Shown piece by piece: positions 29,594 through 39,054 of a DNA stretch of 64,000 bases. The notes under the pieces were generated by a model, which had not been told where the DNA came from, ran no database searches, and saw nothing but the letters and a program-made list of their open reading frames with translations. Source of the stretch: Patescibacteria group bacterium. Lineage in GTDB: Bacteria > Patescibacteriota > Patescibacteriia > UBA9934. The stretch covers positions 595,338-659,337 of the forward strand of contig JBAZXR010000001.1 of the NCBI GenBank assembly GCA_041659765.1, written 5' to 3'. A program made the position numbers and the translations under genes. How positions within the stretch are numbered: position 1 is the stretch's first letter; every line of letters starts with the position of its first letter.

Positions 29594-30310
29594 CTATACA
29601 ACCTTTCCATTCAGATAATTCGTAGCGATGTCCCGAAAAACTGCCTCAGAGAGTTCGAAGTTGAATAAACGGAAAAGTTCATCTGTGACATTCCTCGCCA
29701 AAAGGAAGATCTCTTCATCATTATTCAATTTATCAATATTCGTAGTTAAAACCGTCTCACTCGTTTTCTCTCTAACGCATAAGTATTCCCAAAAAAGCAT
29801 TCGTGAAGAATTTGCCGACATCAGCCGTCTCCCTTGAAGTTGATGGTGACGAACGGTGATAGATACGGTGGTGTCGCCGGCGATCTTTGCTAAGCGAAAA
29901 AAATTACGGAGATACATCAATGTTTCCGTCACTCGAATGATACGCGTATCGAAAAATACCGCGTTCTCTTTACGCTCATCTTCAAAGATTGTTTTGTATA
30001 AATAGAAAGCCCCGATCGCGTTCCAAGCCCAAAAATCTAAACTTCCTCGGCTTTTGTCGAATACCCGAGCAACGTGACCATCACGATCAGGTTGCGGCTT
30101 AAACTCACTACGATCCAAAAATACAGCAATCGGCCAACCAAACGTCTTAATTGTAGAATCCTTTGCCCAAGTGAGGATATCTCTCTTTTGAAGGCTAAGC
30201 TCATTATCAAAAAATACCTCAACCTCCATAATCCCTCTTTTTTTATCCAACGGAATGGACCTAGCTTCAGTCTTCATTCTATCGAACCACTGTTTTTGAT
30301 TTGCGGTCAT
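29594..30310 (-). CDS. hypothetical protein (238 aa), candidate partner/antitoxin of the upstream RelA/SpoT-domain protein
   Basis: No recognisable domain and no HD motif. Its start overlaps the stop of the RelA/SpoT gene by 4 nt (ATGA). Confidence 0.5.
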   Translation of the reverse strand: MTANQKQWFDRMKTEARSIPLDKKRGIMEVEVFFDNELSLQKRDILTWAKDSTIKTFGWPIAVFLDRSEFKPQPDRDGHVARVFDKSRGSLDFWAWNAIGAFYLYKTIFEDERKENAVFFDTRIIRVTETLMYLRNFFRLAKIAGDTTVSITVRHHQLQGRRLMSANSSRMLFWEYLCVREKTSETVLTTNIDKLNNDEEIFLLARNVTDELFRLFNFELSEAVFRDIATNYLNGKVV

Positions 30311-31071
30311 AAACCATTCTTTTTATCATCCTGCTCTCTAGCCTGCTTTTGTACAAGTTGCCACACCTTTTCACACCCCCTATGAATCAAAGAAATTGCG
30401 TCGCTCAGGTCCTTGGAGTCACCTTTCTCGTCTCTGCCATATAGATATTTCCTATCTTGCACTGCCCAGGCATCACCCAAAACCGTTCTAAGTTGAATTT
30501 CACAATGCAAATCACGCGCGATTCGGTCGTATCTCATTGTCTTGGTTACAGTAAAATGGATTGCGTCATAAAACGGACTTGATCGTCTATCCAGTGTAGC
30601 AGTGTCAGTTTTATTGTTAGTCAATCCTAAAGGAGGTTGATTCCTCATTGGAGTCTTAGTGTCGAATACACCATGTTCATCTTTCGATGTTTTTACACAC
30701 TTACCCTCAAGGCGATATGCCTTCAATTCATTGTCTAATCGGTCAGCAAATTTCCAGAGATCGTCTGCACAATTCAACGTAACCCTTACCCCTGCTATGT
30801 CTTTAAAAGAAAATAGACTTTTATACTTTTTCTTCCCAGAGTTTTTATTCCCATCATTATAATTCTCTAAAATCTTACCGATGTCTTTTATATTCTTTCT
30901 AGCGCCGATTGTCTCCACATCGATTCCAGCCTCCTCACACTCCTCACAGATCTGGTTTACAAACCGTAGAATATTTCTTTGCAACTTTAAATACACAGGA
31001 GCCCAAACCACATATTCCTCTCTAATCTTATCCTCAGCCTTCATAAAACCCGCTTGGGTCAATCGCTCCAA
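30307..31071 (-). CDS. RelA/SpoT-domain nucleotidyltransferase (small alarmone synthetase-like; possible toxSAS)
   Basis: FKDIAGVRVTLNCADDL and HCEIQLRTVLGDAWAVQDRKYLYG match the (p)ppGpp-synthetase fold motifs (D-x-A-G-x-R ... EIQ(I/L)RT). 254 aa. Overlaps the 3' end of the hsdM-S gene by 13 nt. Confidence 0.7.
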   Translation of the reverse strand: MERLTQAGFMKAEDKIREEYVVWAPVYLKLQRNILRFVNQICEECEEAGIDVETIGARKNIKDIGKILENYNDGNKNSGKKKYKSLFSFKDIAGVRVTLNCADDLWKFADRLDNELKAYRLEGKCVKTSKDEHGVFDTKTPMRNQPPLGLTNNKTDTATLDRRSSPFYDAIHFTVTKTMRYDRIARDLHCEIQLRTVLGDAWAVQDRKYLYGRDEKGDSKDLSDAISLIHRGCEKVWQLVQKQAREQDDKKNGL

Positions 31072-33482
31072 AGCTTCGCGATCGTTTCTTTAGTTTTTTG
31101 CTCGTAAATCTCAATCAGTTTCTTGGCAGATTCCATGAGCACACGCTCAGCCTCGATTTTTTCCACTATTTGTTTTTGGATGACAAGAGGTGGAAGAGGG
31201 ATTATTACATTTCTAACGATCTCGGAATTAAGATTTCTAACTACCCCACCCGTAGCGGCGTTCTCGAATTGTTCCACCACAATATCTGAACTCAGAATGT
31301 AGTACAGAAAATCTTTTCCGATCTTCTTAGCGTCTTCGGTTAAGCGCAACCAACCGTCATGAATATATCCGTCAATTTTCATTATATATGGACGCCCAAA
31401 ACTCATTGAGTTTGAAAGTACAAAATCACCAACAACGACTTTACGAGATTTTTCTGCGCCCTCCTTTGTCACTCTCTCCGCCGTATGAGTAATATATTTA
31501 TCAGCATTTTTTGTATCCCCAATTTTTACCCAATTAAATCCATCTGAGCTCTCTGTTATAAACTTATCTATCGGGCGCGGCGATGCCCCTCTTTCGATTT
31601 TACAAACTTCGCTGATTTTTACCTTCTCCCACTCTAAACCGATGTCAATTTTTGGTTTCCAATTTTGAGCGATTTGTTTCGCGCCAGCTATGATACCTGC
31701 GTAGCCGCTCAACTCCGCCACGATTTGCTCTTGAAATTCGAGGGAAGGAAGAGGAATCTTGAATTTAGAATATTGAGATATCCAGTATCGCTTGTGCTCA
31801 CCGGGAGTAAACGGGATATTCTGCATTACGTAATAGACATAGCGTATGTTCGCCAACTCTTTTTTTGTGTGTAGTATCTTCATTGCGGAAGACTTCACCT
31901 TGAACGGAAAATCGACAAATTTAGTTGCGGTTGTAAAATCATCAAATATTATCACTGGCAACCCCTCACGAAAAATACCCGTCGTCTCGTTGGTGTGGCC
32001 CAATACAAACGTCTTCCCTGCAGTGAGAACGGGGGTCAGATATTCATCTTTATAATCAACGGATTCGACCAAATACTTAGTGGGCTGCTCGTAGTCCAGA
32101 ACCTCGCCCAATTCTACCATCGGCCATTTTACGTTCGAGTGATCCATAGCGACCCGATATCGATCCGCGGAGAGATTGTAATCATCATTCTTCGCTATGT
32201 CCGTTTTTTCTACATAAATAACGTGCGCATCTTGAGCTTTCTTTCCCTTGGTCCATTCTCTCAAGATATTGACGGATGCAGGTAGATCGTTCTTGCCGAT
32301 GGGTCTACGAGTAGCACCGAGGTCGAATCCATCGTTTTCTATCTTAATAAATACTATTTCATTGAGCGTTTTGGCCAAAGTCACGTCAAAGAAAAGGATG
32401 CTTGTTTTGACGCCGGCGTATGGATTAAATACACCACCGGGAAGACTCACGACAGCAAAAAGACCATCTTCTACCAGATTCTTTCTTAGTTGTTTATACG
32501 CGCTACCCGACTGAAAGATGACCCCTTCTGGCACAATCACGCCCGCCCGGCCGCCTGGTCGCAAGTGGCTCATGATGTAATCGACGAAAAGCACCTCCGC
32601 ACGGTTAGATTGAACTCCAAATTTAGTATGCGGCTTAATCCCGCCTTTTGGAGACATGAATGGTGGGTTAGCTAAGATCACATCGAACTTATCGTTCCAA
32701 CGCTCGTCGCTGGAAAGAGAGTCATACTGGAAAATCTTTGGATTCTTAAATTGGTGGAGGTATGTATTTACCTGGGCAATACGAACCATTCCAGGATCTA
32801 TATCGTAACCCTCAAAATTATTCATCAGCTTGCGCTTCTCGTCTGGAGTAAGCGGTTTCTCTTTCTTTTCTGGGTCATCCTTACCATCGTGTTGCTCTAA
32901 AATGTGCCTATACGAGCTCACCAAAAATCCACCCGTTCCACAGGCAGGATCGAGGACCTTATCATCTTTGGTTGGGTTAACTACATCTACAATGAAATCG
33001 ATAATGTGACGCGGCGTGCGAAACTGGCCGGCATCACCCTGGCTAGACATGATCGAAAGAAGGTATTCGTATGCGTTACCAAGTTCTTCGGAATGCGAAT
33101 AATCAAAATAGTTAATTTCATTCAAAAACAAACCGAGAACTTCAGGCGATCTGTATGGCAAAAAAGCGGACTTAAAGATTCCACGAAATAATTCTGGTAG
33201 CTGTTTCGCCTCAGAAAACTTCAGAAGCGCTTCAGAATAGAGATTCATGCGCTCCTGGTTGCCCATACGTTGATCCATGAGGCGCGTCCAAGCGTAACGC
33301 TCGAGCTCACCCACGAAGAAGGACGGATCTCCGCCAGCCTTAATAGCAGCCTGATCCATGTCATCCATGAACTTATAGATAAGTGCGTTGGTGATCTGGT
33401 CAATTTGAGATGTTGGATTTGGCACTACGCCTACCAAAACCTGGCGAGCAGCATCAATGTGGCGTTTTGTTTCGGTATTCAT
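31059..33482 (-). CDS. hsdM: type I restriction-modification fused methyltransferase-specificity protein (HsdM-HsdS fusion)
   Basis: N-terminal N6-adenine MTase (FRTPRHIIDFIVDVV...VLDPACGTGGFLV; ILANPPF) is followed by two target-recognition modules. Each module ends in an HsdS conserved spacer (IPLPSLEFQEQIVAELS and IIPLPPLVIQKQIVEKIEAE). 807 aa. Confidence 0.85.
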   Translation of the reverse strand: MNTETKRHIDAARQVLVGVVPNPTSQIDQITNALIYKFMDDMDQAAIKAGGDPSFFVGELERYAWTRLMDQRMGNQERMNLYSEALLKFSEAKQLPELFRGIFKSAFLPYRSPEVLGLFLNEINYFDYSHSEELGNAYEYLLSIMSSQGDAGQFRTPRHIIDFIVDVVNPTKDDKVLDPACGTGGFLVSSYRHILEQHDGKDDPEKKEKPLTPDEKRKLMNNFEGYDIDPGMVRIAQVNTYLHQFKNPKIFQYDSLSSDERWNDKFDVILANPPFMSPKGGIKPHTKFGVQSNRAEVLFVDYIMSHLRPGGRAGVIVPEGVIFQSGSAYKQLRKNLVEDGLFAVVSLPGGVFNPYAGVKTSILFFDVTLAKTLNEIVFIKIENDGFDLGATRRPIGKNDLPASVNILREWTKGKKAQDAHVIYVEKTDIAKNDDYNLSADRYRVAMDHSNVKWPMVELGEVLDYEQPTKYLVESVDYKDEYLTPVLTAGKTFVLGHTNETTGIFREGLPVIIFDDFTTATKFVDFPFKVKSSAMKILHTKKELANIRYVYYVMQNIPFTPGEHKRYWISQYSKFKIPLPSLEFQEQIVAELSGYAGIIAGAKQIAQNWKPKIDIGLEWEKVKISEVCKIERGASPRPIDKFITESSDGFNWVKIGDTKNADKYITHTAERVTKEGAEKSRKVVVGDFVLSNSMSFGRPYIMKIDGYIHDGWLRLTEDAKKIGKDFLYYILSSDIVVEQFENAATGGVVRNLNSEIVRNVIIPLPPLVIQKQIVEKIEAERVLMESAKKLIEIYEQKTKETIAKLWSD

Positions 33483-33484
33483 AC

Positions 33485-36052
33485 TTATCCTAAATTGGTT
33501 AGCTGATAAGCGTAGTCACGGACATATTGCGGAACTGTAGTTTTGAACCCGTTAAGTTTTTGATAGTCATCGAAATCAAATGAACCACGAACATTAAATT
33601 CGGCCGGCTTGTTCTGCTTTACAATGTCGCGAACCTCTTCGTCCACAATATACGCCTTAAAGAAGTTTTTGGTTGGTTGGTAGTGTTCCTGGTCTACTTC
33701 ATAAATATCCATGAACTTCTGCCACTCTGACTCCAGAACGTCATCCTTCATCTCGAATGTATCTTTTTCACCAAATGCTACCTGCAAAAACTCTCGAACG
33801 GTGATCCGGCGATCAACACCGAAAATTTTACGGATCTTATCAAGGTTAAGGAAGTATTTTGGCTTGTCGAAAATCTGCTTTTTCGCAAAATCCTCGGCGC
33901 CTTCGGTGTCGCCATTACTCCAGAGATTCTTAAGCGTTTCATTGCCTAGCACATCTTCCTCAACAGCACGCTTAAAACCTTCACGATCAATTCGCATGCC
34001 TTCCTCACCGACTGGAGTCTCCGAAATAGTGGCCAGCTCGTCAGAAGTGGCCAAATCCACGATCCCCTTAAATATCTTCTTGCCATTCTCATCTACAAAT
34101 TCTCCCTGCGCTAATTCCTTACCCGTTGCGGTCTTTTTCTCCTCTGCCTTCTTAACTACCGGAAGCTTGATCTTCTCGTCGTACTTGAATTCTTTTTCAA
34201 AATACTCGCACGTGGCAAAGAAATCGAAAAACTTAAACTTGTCTTTAGCTACCGCGATAACATCACTGTCTTTATAATCCTTATGTTCAAACAAATATGT
34301 TCTAGTTCCACGTCCCTTTATCTGAACAAAATCTGCCGGACTAAAAACCGGACGCATTAGACCAATGTTGAGAAGATCCTGACAGTCGTATCCCGTGGTC
34401 ATCATGCCGACAGTAACAACAACGCGTGTCTTGCCCGTATCATATCCCTCCGGCTCCTTTGCATGACCGCCGAGGCGGTTATTCGCAAAATTAATGGTCA
34501 TTTGTTGTGCATCTTGCACCTGAGAAGTAACCTGCATGGCAAAATCAGATTCTCCGTATTGTTTTGGCCACTTTTCAAACGCTAATCTATTGAGAATATT
34601 AGTGACTCGCGCTGCATGTTTCTGTGAGACACAAAAGACAATGGACTTGCCGAATAATTGAACGCCCAATTTTTCTGCCACTGGATCAAAGATGCCGTTA
34701 TCAACAAATGCCTTACACATGGCAATATTCGTTTCTTCGTTGAAAAACTTTCGCTCGTAGTGCTTTGCGCTATATGTCTCGTCGACCGTTTCTCCACTTT
34801 CAGCTGCAGTGTGAACGCTATACCCTTTTTCCGACAACAACTCAGTCGTGATTTCCGTTCTTGCGTCTACTATCACGGGATTAATCAAATACCCATCTTT
34901 TACACCAGACAACAAATCATATCTAAATGTAGGCTCGCCGGATTCGCAGCCGAAGGTCTTGTACGTGCTTAAAAGCACACGTCGCTCATATTCACGCTGA
35001 GTATCCGCGTCCTCAGCGTCTACGCCCTTTAAGTAGTCCTTCGGAGTCGCGGTTAAACCGAGCTTATAGCCAACAAAGTATTCGAATACTGCCCGACTAT
35101 TACCACCAATTGAACGGTGAGCTTCGTCAGAAATCACTAGCTCAAAATCTGTGGGTGAAAATTCTTTCTTATACCGATCACCTGCCATGAAAGATTGAAT
35201 GGTCGAAACCACTACACTCGCATTCTGCCAAGAATCACGGCTCTCTTTATAGATAACACTTCTAAAATCCTTTCCAAGATACTGAGAAAATGCCTTCTGC
35301 GCCTGGTCCTCAAGCTCGATTCTGTCCACTAAGAATAAAACACGACGAGCATTGCCAGATTTCAGGAAAAGCTTAATAACCGCCGCAGAAATAAGTGTCT
35401 TGCCGGTACCCGTCGCCATTTCAAACAAGAATCTTTGTTTTCCCTCCTTGGCTGACTCTTGCAACGCCTTGATTGCCTGTACTTGATACGGACGAAGCTG
35501 TTTAAGATTATTATTTCTCAAAAATTCGCTTCGCGTTTCCGCATCCTTAAATGCTGGATCCTTAAAAAATCCAGGCATCTGCGTATCTACTACATAGTTC
35601 CCATCAACTAACGTTTTTGCTAGTTCGTCAGGATTCGGGGTGTATTTCTCATATTGTGTAATGGAATCCTGAGTGGGAAAACGAGAAATAGTATCAGGAT
35701 TTCCTTGCTTTGTATCCCAAAAATAGTGAATATTCCCATTTGAAAGAATGATAAATCTCGCTCCAACATTCCGAGCATAATTCCTCGCCTGTTCTTTTGC
35801 TGACAAAGGATCAACAGACTCTTTTTTAGCCTCAACCACAACTAATGGCCTACCGTCTTTATCTAAAAGAAGAAAATCTATAAAACCATGAGCCTCATAC
35901 TCAAAATCATCGCCAAGATCAGCGTATTTCACGCCTGGCTCCAGCTGAATATTCGCCCTGCCCTTCTTCTTATCATCCTCAAACCGCCAGCCTGATTCTT
36001 CGAGGAGTTTGTTAATCTTTATTCTAGCCTTAGCCTCTTTTGCATTTGCCAT
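33485..36052 (-). CDS. hsdR: type I restriction enzyme R subunit (N-terminal PD-(D/E)XK nuclease + SF2 helicase)
   Basis: Nuclease motif GFIDFLLLDKDGRPLVVVEAKK. Helicase motifs ATGTGKT, VISDEAHRS and QIKGRGTR. The stop overlaps the hsdM-S start (ATGA). Confidence 0.85.
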   Translation of the reverse strand: MANAKEAKARIKINKLLEESGWRFEDDKKKGRANIQLEPGVKYADLGDDFEYEAHGFIDFLLLDKDGRPLVVVEAKKESVDPLSAKEQARNYARNVGARFIILSNGNIHYFWDTKQGNPDTISRFPTQDSITQYEKYTPNPDELAKTLVDGNYVVDTQMPGFFKDPAFKDAETRSEFLRNNNLKQLRPYQVQAIKALQESAKEGKQRFLFEMATGTGKTLISAAVIKLFLKSGNARRVLFLVDRIELEDQAQKAFSQYLGKDFRSVIYKESRDSWQNASVVVSTIQSFMAGDRYKKEFSPTDFELVISDEAHRSIGGNSRAVFEYFVGYKLGLTATPKDYLKGVDAEDADTQREYERRVLLSTYKTFGCESGEPTFRYDLLSGVKDGYLINPVIVDARTEITTELLSEKGYSVHTAAESGETVDETYSAKHYERKFFNEETNIAMCKAFVDNGIFDPVAEKLGVQLFGKSIVFCVSQKHAARVTNILNRLAFEKWPKQYGESDFAMQVTSQVQDAQQMTINFANNRLGGHAKEPEGYDTGKTRVVVTVGMMTTGYDCQDLLNIGLMRPVFSPADFVQIKGRGTRTYLFEHKDYKDSDVIAVAKDKFKFFDFFATCEYFEKEFKYDEKIKLPVVKKAEEKKTATGKELAQGEFVDENGKKIFKGIVDLATSDELATISETPVGEEGMRIDREGFKRAVEEDVLGNETLKNLWSNGDTEGAEDFAKKQIFDKPKYFLNLDKIRKIFGVDRRITVREFLQVAFGEKDTFEMKDDVLESEWQKFMDIYEVDQEHYQPTKNFFKAYIVDEEVRDIVKQNKPAEFNVRGSFDFDDYQKLNGFKTTVPQYVRDYAYQLTNLG

Positions 36053-36243
36053 AGTCCTGGAGATTCTATCACCGGTCTAAAAACCCCGCCACATCAAGTA
36101 AAGTCAGCTTGCCGACGAGTGCATGCCTTATGCGCAAAGTATCCCCTTCCCCCGAAGCCTATTATCAGCGAGTATAGGCATGGCGGATCGGGAGGTGGTC
36201 GAACCCGCGAAGTCAATTAATATTAACCCCAGTACACACACCT

Positions 36244-36453
36244 ATGACAGACATCAAAGGGAACCAGGACGGACCCGGCGGTCGAAACGAAACGTATAAA
36301 ATCGGTTCGCGCCGTGAAGTCCCCCGAGTGCAGGCAGTACGAGAGGTAAAGGCCGGAACACACGACGGAGCTCATGTGGTCAAAATCAATGGCCGGGAGT
36401 ACGTTCGTGACAATCCGGACAGCTCCAAGCGTGACAACGTCAACCAACGTTAA
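36244..36453 (+). CDS. small hypothetical protein (69 aa)
   Basis: Gly/Arg-rich N-terminus. A conserved-looking HVVKINGREYVRDNPDS core. Followed by a bidirectional terminator. Confidence 0.4.
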   Translation: MTDIKGNQDGPGGRNETYKIGSRREVPRVQAVREVKAGTHDGAHVVKINGREYVRDNPDSSKRDNVNQR

Positions 36454-36561
36454 GGTTAATGGAAAAGCTGCACGAGTAGATAGAGCCCGCTCGGAAGGAG
36501 TAAATGAGGCAGTTGTAATCTGAAAATGGCGCTCGAAAGGTAGCACCTTCCAAAGTCACAC

Positions 36562-36590
36562 AAAACCCCGTCGGCCAGGCGGGGTTTTGC
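36562..36590. terminator. bidirectional terminator
   Basis: AAAACCCCG-TCGGCCAGG-CGGGGTTTT. Confidence 0.6.
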
Positions 36591-36699: not shown

Positions 36700-38256
36700 T
36701 TACTGCGTCTTCTCACCTGTGAGTAAAAAGTCTAACTCGTTGTCAAAGATTCTTTTAAATTCCGATCGTGGATCCGCATGATCAATAATCTGTTTTGCAA
36801 CTAGATGGGCGTATTTATCTTTAATTATTCCCTCAGGATAATTAATCCTGTGATCTACGCTGCATCCAGAAAGTTCAGCATCGAAATCATTCTTCATTTC
36901 ATTATCGTAGTAATCTTCAATCTGCTTCCTTGATAATACAACGAAACGTTTGGCCGCGATATCCACGTTCATCTTCTGCATCTTCTTGTATTCGGGAGTA
37001 TTTTGGTATTCAGGATCAGTGGGGCTATCAATGATAATGCTGTATTTATCGTAGTAAAATGGGTTGCACTTAAGGAGTGTCTGCTCGGTGTTGAACCTTC
37101 GAATGTGTTCTGCAAAAAGTGGTACATTATTTGCCCCTGCGGCTGAAATAAACCCCCAATTCTTCACGATCCCTTTCTTCTTTAATGCGTCAAGCAATTT
37201 TTGAAGACTAGCCTCCTCGAGAAGACAATAATTTTCAACGTAGCCAAAATCCGTCTCGTCAGCCCCCACCATCTTTGCAGCAATATAGTTAACGCTCTGA
37301 TCATCGAACCCGTCGTTGCCTTTCCCCGGATTACCGTGCTCGTCTACGGTTTGTCCGCCATCAATTAAATATACCTTTTGATCTCTTGGAAAACTTCCGG
37401 ATTTCGAAACAATAAATGGCGAATGTGTAGTTACGAAAAACATTGCGTTATTGACTGATGATAAATCGTTTAAGATTTTTGGAACCAATTTTTGATACTC
37501 AGGGTGAAGAGATGTTTCCGGTTCCTCGATGCAGATGATGTGAAAATAATTTGGGACCTCCGGTCTATCGTTCCTTTTGTAGGACTCCAAATCATTGATC
37601 AATTTCTGCAAATTGAAATAAATCGAAATAAGGCGGATTTGTCCAGACGACAATGCCTTGAGATTAATTCTAGAGCCATCTTCAAGAAGTAACTGAATTG
37701 ATTCAACGCCCGCTGCCGATCTCATTACGTTCGTCACGGGAGAGTTGGTGTATCGATGTCTATTAATGAAATCTCTTAGATCACGTTCTAAAATGAAACT
37801 CGGCAACTTATCAAGATTGATCGCGAGACCCTCCTTGTGGGGCAACGTTCGTCTTGTGTCACTGAAATCGAAATATCGGGCAATATCTCCTAGGGGGAGA
37901 GTTGTGGCCCCTCCTTCAGCCTTCTGCATAACAGCTTTCCCATTTTTAATGAGTGAGGGATCCAGATGCACGTTTACTGTATTGCCTATTCCTTCCGGCT
38001 CGTCATATGAATACGAGAAGTTGAAGTCTGGATGGAATACTTCGAGAGGATCGCCAAAGGCCTCGTCGATGTTGGCGTCACTACGATTGTAATATTGGGA
38101 ATTAAAAGCCATCATGATCAATTCGAGAACCGAGCTTTTTCCTGCGCCGTTTTTTCCAATTAAATAATTGACCTTCTTTAATTTTGTAATTTCAAATGAT
38201 GAAGCCTTGATATTTTTATACCCAGAGATACTTAATTTGCTCAACATAAACTCCAT
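36700..38256 (-). CDS. ABC-type AAA ATPase of the OLD/AAA_15-21 family with a possible C-terminal Toprim-like domain (putative anti-phage defence)
   Basis: Walker A LIGKNGAGKSSVLE, ABC signature-like ALSSGQIRLISIY, Walker B IICIEEPETSLHP, H-loop VTTHSP. The C-terminal ~200 aa carry Toprim-like acidic residues (CLLEEAS ... IIIDSPTDPE). Confidence 0.6.
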   Translation of the reverse strand: MEFMLSKLSISGYKNIKASSFEITKLKKVNYLIGKNGAGKSSVLELIMMAFNSQYYNRSDANIDEAFGDPLEVFHPDFNFSYSYDEPEGIGNTVNVHLDPSLIKNGKAVMQKAEGGATTLPLGDIARYFDFSDTRRTLPHKEGLAINLDKLPSFILERDLRDFINRHRYTNSPVTNVMRSAAGVESIQLLLEDGSRINLKALSSGQIRLISIYFNLQKLINDLESYKRNDRPEVPNYFHIICIEEPETSLHPEYQKLVPKILNDLSSVNNAMFFVTTHSPFIVSKSGSFPRDQKVYLIDGGQTVDEHGNPGKGNDGFDDQSVNYIAAKMVGADETDFGYVENYCLLEEASLQKLLDALKKKGIVKNWGFISAAGANNVPLFAEHIRRFNTEQTLLKCNPFYYDKYSIIIDSPTDPEYQNTPEYKKMQKMNVDIAAKRFVVLSRKQIEDYYDNEMKNDFDAELSGCSVDHRINYPEGIIKDKYAHLVAKQIIDHADPRSEFKRIFDNELDFLLTGEKTQ

Positions 38257-38514: not shown

Positions 38515-39054
38515 ATGCCCCTCCCTCTCTTCACCTTAAAACGCCACCCCCGCTCCCGAGGCGTTCGTATTCGTATTCGTATTGGGGCTGATGGGCAGTG
38601 TACGGTCACGGCGCATAAACGAGTCCCCGTCTGGATGATCAACCAATTTGTAGAGCAAAAGTCCGCTTGGATCCAAGAACACGTCGCCAAAGCCAAAAGC
38701 AGGCCGCAGAGTTTGCTTCATGGGGGTACGAAGGCGGATTACACTCGCCTAAAAGTACGCGCGCTTGAGCTGGCGCATGCAAGGCTCGAATATTTCAATG
38801 CAGTCTACAAGCTCACCTACAAAAAAGTTTCTATTCGCAATCAAAAAACCCGCTGGGGCAGTTGTACAAGTAATGGGGCGTTGAGTTTTAATTATCGGAT
38901 CGTGCAACTGTCGGCGGAACAGGTTGATTACATCGTTGTTCATGAACTCTGCCACCTGGCGCAGATGAATCACTCGGTGAAGTTTTGGAGGTTGGTTGAG
39001 AAAACTATTCCAGACCACAAACGACTCCGAGCGACGATTAGGAACGCAAAGTAA
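38515..39054 (+). CDS. DUF45/YgjP-family zinc metallohydrolase (M48/SprT-like HExxH)
   Basis: VVHELCHLAQMNHS (HExxH) and a typical DUF45 N-terminus (RIRIRIGADGQCTVTAHKRVP...WI). Proteins of this family are often encoded beside type I R-M systems. Contains an internal (CGTATT)x3 microsatellite. Confidence 0.75.
   Translation: MPLPLFTLKRHPRSRGVRIRIRIGADGQCTVTAHKRVPVWMINQFVEQKSAWIQEHVAKAKSRPQSLLHGGTKADYTRLKVRALELAHARLEYFNAVYKLTYKKVSIRNQKTRWGSCTSNGALSFNYRIVQLSAEQVDYIVVHELCHLAQMNHSVKFWRLVEKTIPDHKRLRATIRNAK

Follow-up and report, generated by a model that had tools for sequence, protein, structure and literature searches.

A probable two-gene, Type I-like restriction-modification system with a fused methyltransferase-specificity protein in a Patescibacteria genome

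A 64,000-nucleotide stretch of DNA from a Patescibacteria group bacterium (assembly GCA_041659765.1, contig JBAZXR010000001.1, positions 595,338 to 659,337; the whole stretch is referred to below as the window, and positions are counted from its first letter) probably encodes a horizontally acquired, two-gene Type I-like restriction-modification (R-M) system, in which the methyltransferase (M) and specificity (S) parts are joined in one polypeptide, i.e., a system with the layout named "Type IMS". Its two proteins are called here R and MS, and the module R-MS. By its domains and motifs, MS is an HsdM-type, S-adenosylmethionine-dependent N6-adenine methyltransferase followed by a complete HsdS module composed of two target-recognition domains (TRDs) and two conserved regions (CRs) in the order TRD1-CR1-TRD2-CR2. 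The partner protein R has the makeup of a PD-(D/E)XK nuclease fused to a superfamily 2 (SF2) ATP-driven translocase. The features of the two genes are given below, where numbers of amino acids (aa) refer to the respective protein and median identities refer to a region-by-region comparison of 73 full-length homologues with the MS of the window.

33485..36052, minus strand: hsdR-like gene, 855 aa, first gene of the R-MS module
35702..35896, minus strand: nuclease core of R, aa 53-117; HSDR_N_2 (E 1e-9), with G..DFLLLD...VVVEAKK (D61, E74, K76)
35039..35503, minus strand: RecA1 (ResIII) ATPase lobe of R, aa 184-338; ResIII (E 6e-42), with MATGTGKT (Walker A), DEAH and GLTATP
34283..34675, minus strand: RecA2 lobe of R, approximately aa 460-590, with VTVGMMTTGYDC and QIKGRGTR (motif VI)
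31059..33482, minus strand: hsdMS fusion gene, 807 aa plus stop codon, second gene of the module, starting 2 nt past the R stop codon
33123..33482, minus strand: HsdM-type all-helical N-terminal domain of MS, aa 1-120; helices in the AlphaFold2 model (H3-124); median identity 57%
32145..33122, minus strand: gamma-class N6-adenine methyltransferase catalytic domain, aa 121-446; matched by N6_Mtase, PADLOC and HsdM structures of the PDB; median identity 61%
32925-32951, minus strand: motif I, DPACGTGGF, of the methyltransferase domain
32658-32669, minus strand: motif IV, NPPF, of the methyltransferase domain
31767..32129, minus strand: TRD1, aa 452-572; identified by its identity to EcoR124 HsdS; hypervariable, median identity 17%
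31647..31766, minus strand: central conserved region CR1, aa 573-612, IPLPSLEFQEQIVAEL; a long helix; median identity 55%
31212..31634, minus strand: TRD2, aa 617-757; Methylase_S, PADLOC Specificity_I (E 3e-54) and structure 1YF2; median identity 19%
31059..31211, minus strand: distal conserved region CR2, aa 758-807, IPLPPLVIQKQIVEKI, plus stop codon; a helix in the AlphaFold2 model; median identity 48%

In the N-terminal part of MS, the Pfam family N6_Mtase covers aa 132-445 (E 2e-53) and the PADLOC profile MTase_I (PDLC03021) covers aa 2-465 (E 6e-100). Motif I (DPACGTG) is found at aa 178 and motif IV at aa 272, which together with the helical N-terminal domain is the arrangement of a gamma-class, HsdM-type methyltransferase. 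This helical domain contains a very conserved segment, LVGxVPxPxSQIxQITxALIYKFMDDMD, seen as invariant columns of the alignment, and the PDB sequence matches of the N-terminal half of MS are the HsdM structures 5YBB, 3UFB, 2OKC and EcoKI M. In the C-terminal part, Methylase_S matches twice, its best stretch being aa 617-777, while the PADLOC Specificity_I profiles match aa 451-604 and aa 617-786, and the REase_MTase_IIG profile matches aa 602-804. Each of the two TRDs is followed by a conserved helical spacer that starts at an IPLP motif (aa 576 and aa 761). Essentially the whole of EcoR124 HsdS can be aligned with the C-terminal 360 aa of MS (E 3e-44), where TRD1 shares 76 of 125 residues (61%) with the N-terminal TRD of that protein, and the HsdS structure 1YF2 matches the TRD2 region (E 3e-26).

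The predicted structure of MS agrees with this division. In an AlphaFold2 model calculated from 82 homologues (mean predicted local distance difference test score, pLDDT, 83.9; predicted TM-score, pTM, 0.54), long helices at residues 581-607 and 766-806 are the two conserved regions. The pLDDT drops below 50 at the M/S junction (445-448) and in short loops of the methylase domain (148-153 and 276-280), i.e., the junction is the sole disordered inter-domain stretch of the model. The best Foldseek match is 7EEW, an M-half-S fusion from Vibrio (V.) vulnificus, followed by HsdM structures and HsdS 1YF2; about 450 columns of MS align to the HsdM structures 2OKC and 5YBB with target-normalised TM-scores of 0.68-0.75. 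TRD1 (WPMVELGEV...) begins about 10 residues past a YNLSADRY motif, which leaves an M-to-S linker of only ~5-10 residues, and therefore the C-terminal helical tail of HsdM is missing in MS. Classical HsdM binds HsdS via this tail.

The Pfam families matched by R are HSDR_N_2 (aa 53-117), ResIII (aa 184-338), SWI2_SNF2 and DEAD; the motifs GTGKT (aa 215) and DEAH (aa 309) are present. The RecA2 lobe gives a weak Helicase_C match (aa 538-584) and aligns to the RD2 domain of 3H1T, a fragment of V. vulnificus HsdR that is also the top PDB match of the whole protein (E 6e-31, aa 10-585), where the alignment takes in the nuclease and both RecA lobes. The PADLOC profile REase_I matches R with E 5e-56, the best curated family is the EcoAI/FtnUII-type R of NCBIfam, and the C-terminal region has no family match. 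Among 69 R homologues, the motifs D...EAK, QAR.YA, Walker A, DEAH and TATP and the RecA2 motifs listed above, including QxxGRGxR (motif VI), are conserved in at least 95%, and none of the 69 sequences contains an internal stop.

An earlier note on this DNA had described an ORF (open reading frame) of 807 aa at 31059-33482, containing a complete gamma-class methyltransferase and two recognition modules with HsdS spacers, and paired with a separate 855-aa HsdR composed of a PD-(D/E)XK nuclease and a helicase. The ORF, which starts with ATG, its length and this entire domain content are borne out by the results above, whereas the direction and arrangement of the genes need correction. In the ORF listing both ORFs lie on the minus strand, and on the coding strand R does not follow MS, as the note had it, but precedes it. 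Nor do the two genes share an ATGA overlap: the junction, AGGATAAGTATG, reads TAA-GT-ATG, i.e., a gap of 2 nt, and a Shine-Dalgarno-like AGGA is located 8 nt ahead of the MS start codon. The sole ATGA overlap nearby (30310-30307) is that between a RelA/SpoT-like ORF and a 238-aa ORF, an unrelated pair found downstream of MS.

The earlier note also implied that the fusion of M and S is rare, and a frameshift uniting separate hsdM and hsdS genes had been considered as its possible origin; neither view survives the comparison with other data. Records at NCBI, JGI and Logan hold a 100% identical MS protein, and the Logan assembly of SRR18595301, which is independent, carries the identical 807-aa ORF with the same neighbors. 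Uninterrupted fusion ORFs of 794-878 aa are found in ~70 of 85 homologous loci from many phyla, and in a protein search more than 100 sequences of ~800 aa matched MS over the full query with 58-75% identity, each of them containing both N6_Mtase and Methylase_S. A HMMER scan with the M domain alone yielded 955 clusters (at 50% identity) with E <= 1e-30; when the best 150 of these were sorted by length, 77 had the length of a two-TRD and 39 that of a one-TRD protein, i.e., 116 were of fused length, and only 12 were shorter than 560 aa. Six of these short relatives were inspected as candidates for natural M-only forms and rejected: all but one are fragments or frameshifted tails, the remaining sequence is degenerate and ends near the M/S junction, and a clear M-only protein was found in none of the six. 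Given the identical independent ORF, the full-length homologues and the fused-length clusters, the probability that the 807-aa ORF arose by misassembly or sequencing error is vanishingly small. The lineage of MS is fused as a rule.

A scan of GTDB with one genome per species identified at least 583 relatives of MS. The best 80 of these align with MS nearly end to end, most of them including both TRD regions, and their hosts are Patescibacteria, Omnitrophota, Proteobacteria, Bacteroidota, Spirochaetota, Dehalococcoidia, Thermodesulfobacteriota and archaea; the two cultured strains among them are Thiobacillus denitrificans RG and Bradyrhizobium sp. 1. Further relatives are carried by plasmids. 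The Paracoccus zhejiangensis plasmid pPZ02 encodes an R of 848 aa and a two-TRD MS of 858 aa, and the Escherichia (E.) coli IncF plasmid CP057208.1 (locus L087, 3403-10951) encodes, after finO, an R of 849 aa, then a one-TRD M-S protein of 677 aa and then the defence gene Ppl (PADLOC E 3e-136). The top plasmid matches are further E. coli records, each matching aa 1-414 of MS at 52%, and weaker M-domain matches bring the total to 702 plasmid records, including 111 from Escherichia and 350 from Klebsiella. The natural M-S-fused lineage is an ancient and diversified one and not a read-through. The earlier note had named a common subtype as grounds for refuting its view, and the fusion is effectively such a subtype.

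The two genes also form a unit. In tblastn comparisons of 85 related loci, ~80 have R immediately ahead of MS in the same orientation; of the exceptions, three contain no DNA upstream of MS, one lacks an R within 7 kb, and one has R downstream of MS on the opposite strand. Nearly everywhere in the range of phyla that extends from Patescibacteria and Proteobacteria to archaea, R and MS share a strand and are 2-40 nt apart. Within 7 kb, none of 87 loci contains a second M-domain gene, and the only extra S-domain match near these loci is a short fragment in locus L033. The order R-then-MS is a conserved two-gene module. Across homologous loci R retains 50-81% identity, which is better conservation than that of MS, and keeps all its catalytic motifs.

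Conservation within MS is uneven (see the median identities listed above), and the TRDs stand out not only by their variability but also by the manner in which they are shared. Relative to the window MS, the protein of locus L006 is 84% identical in TRD2 and 17% in TRD1, while that of locus L007 is 81% identical in TRD1 and 19% in TRD2. Some distant hosts have one TRD in common with MS at 63-74% identity; for TRD2 the range is 63-84%, independently of TRD1. Because the TRDs are exchanged independently, both behave as functional, mobile specificity modules. A conserved M core and conserved CRs, combined with hypervariable TRDs that are swapped one at a time, are, at the level of these alignments, the signature of Type I specificity.

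The family includes variants with a different number or arrangement of the parts. Members with one TRD are 619-667 aa long (L040, L044 and L079), and in L038 TRD2 is found in another reading frame. In the locus of Microgenomates bacterium UTCPR1 (L045 592-3096, MWSR01000024.1), an in-frame stop is located exactly at the M/S junction (...GERYRESEI*TNQKWPMVELGEV, where the asterisk is the stop); this could be a natural fission into M and S, a read-through site or an error. In two other loci it is the R gene or its surroundings that differ: R is split into ORFs of 353 aa and 481 aa in L001 (5461-7996), probably a pseudogene, and in L002 (6812-7897) R and MS are separated by a gene with a Fic domain.

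In the proposed mechanism, the two TRDs would read a bipartite, asymmetric target. The target of EcoR124I is GAAN6RTCG, of which the N-terminal TRD of the enzyme reads GAA, and because TRD1 is so similar to this GAA-reading TRD, one half-site, read via TRD1, is probably GAA. At host sites MS would methylate adenine, thereby giving protection by N6-methyladenine (m6A). On unmethylated foreign DNA, R would dock on the M domain, pull the DNA in an ATP-driven reaction and cut at a distance.

A different reading of the locus is that MS is an orphan or regulatory methyltransferase and that the adjacent helicase-nuclease is functionally unrelated. The names given by the annotation pipeline PGAP are indeed generic ("N-6 DNA methylase" for MS and "DEAD/DEAH box helicase family protein" for R), and curated Type I thresholds are missed. 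Yet the same-strand adjacency of R and MS with its short gap is near-universal across phyla, and R surpasses MS in conservation with every catalytic motif in place, which makes this reading very improbable. What needs more careful weighing is how a protein with one M domain serves two TRDs. The most likely working unit is (MS)2R2, because a free hsdM gene is absent and MS has one M per two TRDs. In this homo-oligomer the second chain of (MS)2 would lend its M domain to the half-site bound by TRD2 while its own S part is idle, an arrangement that we propose tentatively and would place slightly short of an even chance; the R2(MS)2 stoichiometry, which had already been suggested in the earlier note, is plausible, and the arrangement resembles the homotetramers with which the single-chain Type IIB enzymes TstI and AloI cope with the same ratio. 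Several points weigh against this reading of the system. The function assigned to the natural two-TRD members derives from domain and motif content rather than from experiment, both MS and R fall below the curated NCBIfam cut-offs and bear generic PGAP names, and a pTM of 0.54 leaves the modeled inter-domain geometry of MS uncertain. In classical enzymes the HsdM C-terminal tail anchors M on the coiled coil of S, and lacking this tail an untethered second M would have no obvious hold at TRD2. In addition, an engineered EcoKI M-S fusion needed added free HsdM in vitro (PMC3510504), and with the Staphylococcus aureus CC398-1 fusion a clipped fragment of M was present and only ~76% of sites were modified (PMC6158711).

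Instead of an (MS)2R2 complex, the active form might be a half-enzyme, in which an MS monomer binds the site with both TRDs and methylates only one strand, beside the tethered M, while a single R is recruited and translocates in one direction, such that cleavage would require two complexes converging from head-to-head sites. The same logic allows Type ISP and Type III systems to get by with methylation of one strand. Such a form would fit the ratio of one M per two TRDs and the lack of a free hsdM in the 87 loci, as well as the absence of a tail that could anchor a second M across a junction of only ~5-10 residues, and a 1:2 ratio in AloI and CjeI has been termed a mystery (PMC3874165). However, engineered two-TRD fusions methylate both strands (PMC6158711), and the one-TRD relatives and, according to the account of 7EEW given in PMC12429846, the V. 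vulnificus protein must dimerise, so that the lineage would have M-M and CR contacts. Moreover, PDB sequence searches with R and MS gave Type I subunits and no Type ISP enzyme among the matches. We therefore regard the half-enzyme as unlikely, though as an alternative of some weight. Less probable still is that one MS chain and a free M, the latter released by proteolytic clipping or premature termination at the junction, together restore a classical M2S1 core, to give R2·M·MS. Here, the requirement of the engineered EcoKI fusion for free HsdM in vitro (PMC3510504), the 73-kDa clipped fragment with all of M that co-purified with the CC398-1 fusion (PMC6158711), the disordered M/S junction of the model and the junction stop of L045, which would yield separate M and S, are countered by the absence, from any free M of this lineage, of the C-terminal helices through which classical HsdM binds HsdS. 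The L045 stop is also a single case that may be an error or a pseudogene, and the short entries inspected among the best 150 clusters are fragments or frameshifted tails and not genuine M-only proteins, which together leave this rebuilt core improbable.

A more general proposal is that the two-TRD M-S lineage uses a non-classical stoichiometry, be it the monomeric MS·R half-enzyme or (MS)2 with an idle S module. We consider this possible but doubtful; its half-enzyme variant, which we hold to the same degree, would be Type ISP logic made of Type I parts. If true, either stoichiometry would solve, in a tractable two-protein system, the puzzle of one catalytic unit per two TRDs posed by AloI and CjeI, and the two-TRD form of MS is a natural test case for one methyltransferase domain serving two recognition domains.

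The R-MS module resides in a region of low GC content, 41-45% between positions ~30 and ~40 kb compared to ~52% on both flanks, which is bordered by metK plus a DUF2779 gene at one end and by pheT at the opposite end. The drop in GC between metK and pheT indicates an acquired island, i.e., the low-GC stretch with R-MS is consistent with a horizontally acquired defence island. A tblastn search with the M and S halves detected no second M or S copy in the 64-kb window. An Rfam scan of 28-41 kb gave no match, neither did a megablast search against E. coli genomes, and a promoter/terminator scan gave counts not above those of shuffled sequence. The ~500 nt upstream of R (36053-36555) contain no convincing ORF, their only ORF being one of 107 aa with a GTG start (36223-36546), and no Rfam match.

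Other genes of the island were considered as parts of the system, i.e., an AAA_15 ATPase, a YgjP-like peptidase, the RelA/SpoT-like ORF and the 238-aa ORF, and were rejected, as none of them recurs in the 87 R-MS loci. The AAA_15/AAA_21 ATPase (36700-38256, minus strand, 518 aa) resembles OLD, PtuA, GajA and AriA (PADLOC AriA E 9e-26); its C-terminal half is uncharacterised and a terminator-like hairpin follows the gene at ~36555-36585. This ATPase gene precedes R, is not conserved with R-MS and has the look of an independent defence gene. The YgjP-like metallopeptidase gene (38515-39054, plus strand; Pfam E 2e-41) belongs to the same low-GC island but lies on the strand opposite R-MS and is not found beside other R-MS loci. 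Members of the YgjP-like family often accompany Type I R-M loci.

The RelA/SpoT-like ORF and its 238-aa partner (29594-31044, minus strand) follow directly after the MS stop codon. The former is 245 aa long from an ATG at 31044, with a Pfam RelA_SpoT match of 27 bits; the latter has no family match and a 48% identical counterpart in locus L092. Three further metagenome contigs carry such a pair but no R-M genes (253+240, 254+240 and 234+249 aa); the RelA-like protein has only 14 homologues among 5.8 billion proteins, i.e., the pair is a rare, conserved two-gene module. From its sequence family, it is a candidate for a toxin/antitoxin pair of the small-alarmone-synthetase type or for a defence pair. 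Speculatively, its position packed behind a Type I-like system recalls PrrC inside EcoprrI.

As identified, R-MS would be the main methylation-based barrier to foreign DNA in this small Patescibacteria metagenome-assembled genome, for which a bipartite m6A motif with a GAA half-site is predicted. The module belongs to a large, multi-phylum family with generic PGAP names, which illustrates that Type I-like systems can escape routine annotation; the under-annotated relatives include the one-TRD form on many E. coli IncF plasmids.

Among the known systems, membership in MADS was rejected on the basis of scores (MAD2 119 vs 720 bits and MAD5 31 vs 400 bits) and the lack of further conserved genes with the module, and BREX is ruled out by scores and architecture. 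The Type ISP enzymes LlaGI and LlaBIII resemble R-MS in that an HsdM-type methylase is joined directly to a TRD and works with a nuclease-translocase. However, a Type ISP enzyme is a single R-M-S chain with one TRD, whereas here a stop codon and a new ATG divide R from MS, and MS has two TRDs, which excludes this assignment. The Type IIB/IIG enzymes AloI, CjeI and TstI share with MS the chain M-TRD-CR-TRD-CR, i.e., one catalytic unit per two TRDs, a ratio (1RM:2TRD in AloI and CjeI) that Loenen et al. called a mystery (PMC3874165); TstI and AloI form homotetramers (PMC4027205). In these enzymes the nuclease is N-terminal in the same chain, there is no translocase and the cut positions are fixed, while in R-MS the nuclease is found on a separate ATP-dependent motor protein. 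A single-chain Type IIB enzyme was rejected on the same grounds, the N-terminal 120 aa of MS being an HsdM-type helical domain and the nuclease being part of R.

The classical Type I systems have the same three activities by domain content, an S part of the form TRD-CR-TRD-CR and hypervariable, exchangeable TRDs; TRD1 of MS is 61% identical to that of EcoR124, and R is nearest to the EcoAI/FtnUII family. A bipartite asymmetric target, ATP-dependent translocation and cleavage remote from the target, which also define these systems, would be expected of R-MS from its domains and its EcoR124-like TRD1. They differ from R-MS in that M and S are separate subunits that assemble as M2S1 (R2M2S1), whereas here these parts are covalently joined in a single ORF with neither a stop nor a frameshift, without the HsdM C-terminal tail, such that there are two genes instead of three. 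The curated NCBIfam models for the classical subunits are matched below their cut-offs (hsdM TIGR00497, 55 vs 243 bits; hsdR TIGR00348, 53 vs 285 bits; EcoAI/FtnUII R NF046051, 226 vs 550 bits).

The closest parallels are other M-S fusions. In V. vulnificus YJ016, from which the HsdR fragment 3H1T was also obtained (PMC2777439), a natural HsdM-S1/2 fusion dimerises and mimics M2S1 (PDB 7EEW; Seo et al. 2022, as summarized in PMC12429846). Like R-MS, this system combines a naturally fused M and TRD with HsdR as a protein of its own, and the MS family also has one-TRD members. As described in that summary, however, the V. vulnificus protein has one TRD and forms a balanced M2(S1/2)2 dimer, a balance that is broken by the two TRDs per M in the MS of the window. 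The relationship is distant, with a match to MS of E 4e-26 that covers the M core only and a weak alignment of R to 3H1T. Engineered fusions offer the second parallel. Roberts et al. (2012) removed the frameshift between hsdM and hsdS of EcoKI and found that the fusion, together with HsdR, restricts and modifies in vivo (PMC3510504). Bower et al. (2018) observed restriction and modification in vivo also for an M-S fusion of S. aureus CC398-1 with HsdR; this MSfus methylates both strands at the sites it modifies, size-exclusion chromatography suggested an (MSfus)2 dimer, and a clipped M-containing fragment co-purified (PMC6158711). These proteins, like MS, have M and then a two-TRD S in one chain with a separate HsdR, and keep the bipartite specificity of their parents. 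Unlike MS, they were made by frameshift deletion, retain the HsdM C-terminal tail and relied on free or clipped M, while the natural MS lineage is ancient and diversified. In the literature searched, no paper was found on a natural M-S fusion that has two TRDs and a separate HsdR. The M-S-fused architecture is thus widespread and already has engineered and structural precedents, and "Type IMS" has been defined as an HsdM-HsdS fusion with one or two TRDs plus a separate HsdR (PMC3510504), which is the architecture that R-MS displays as judged from sequence alone.

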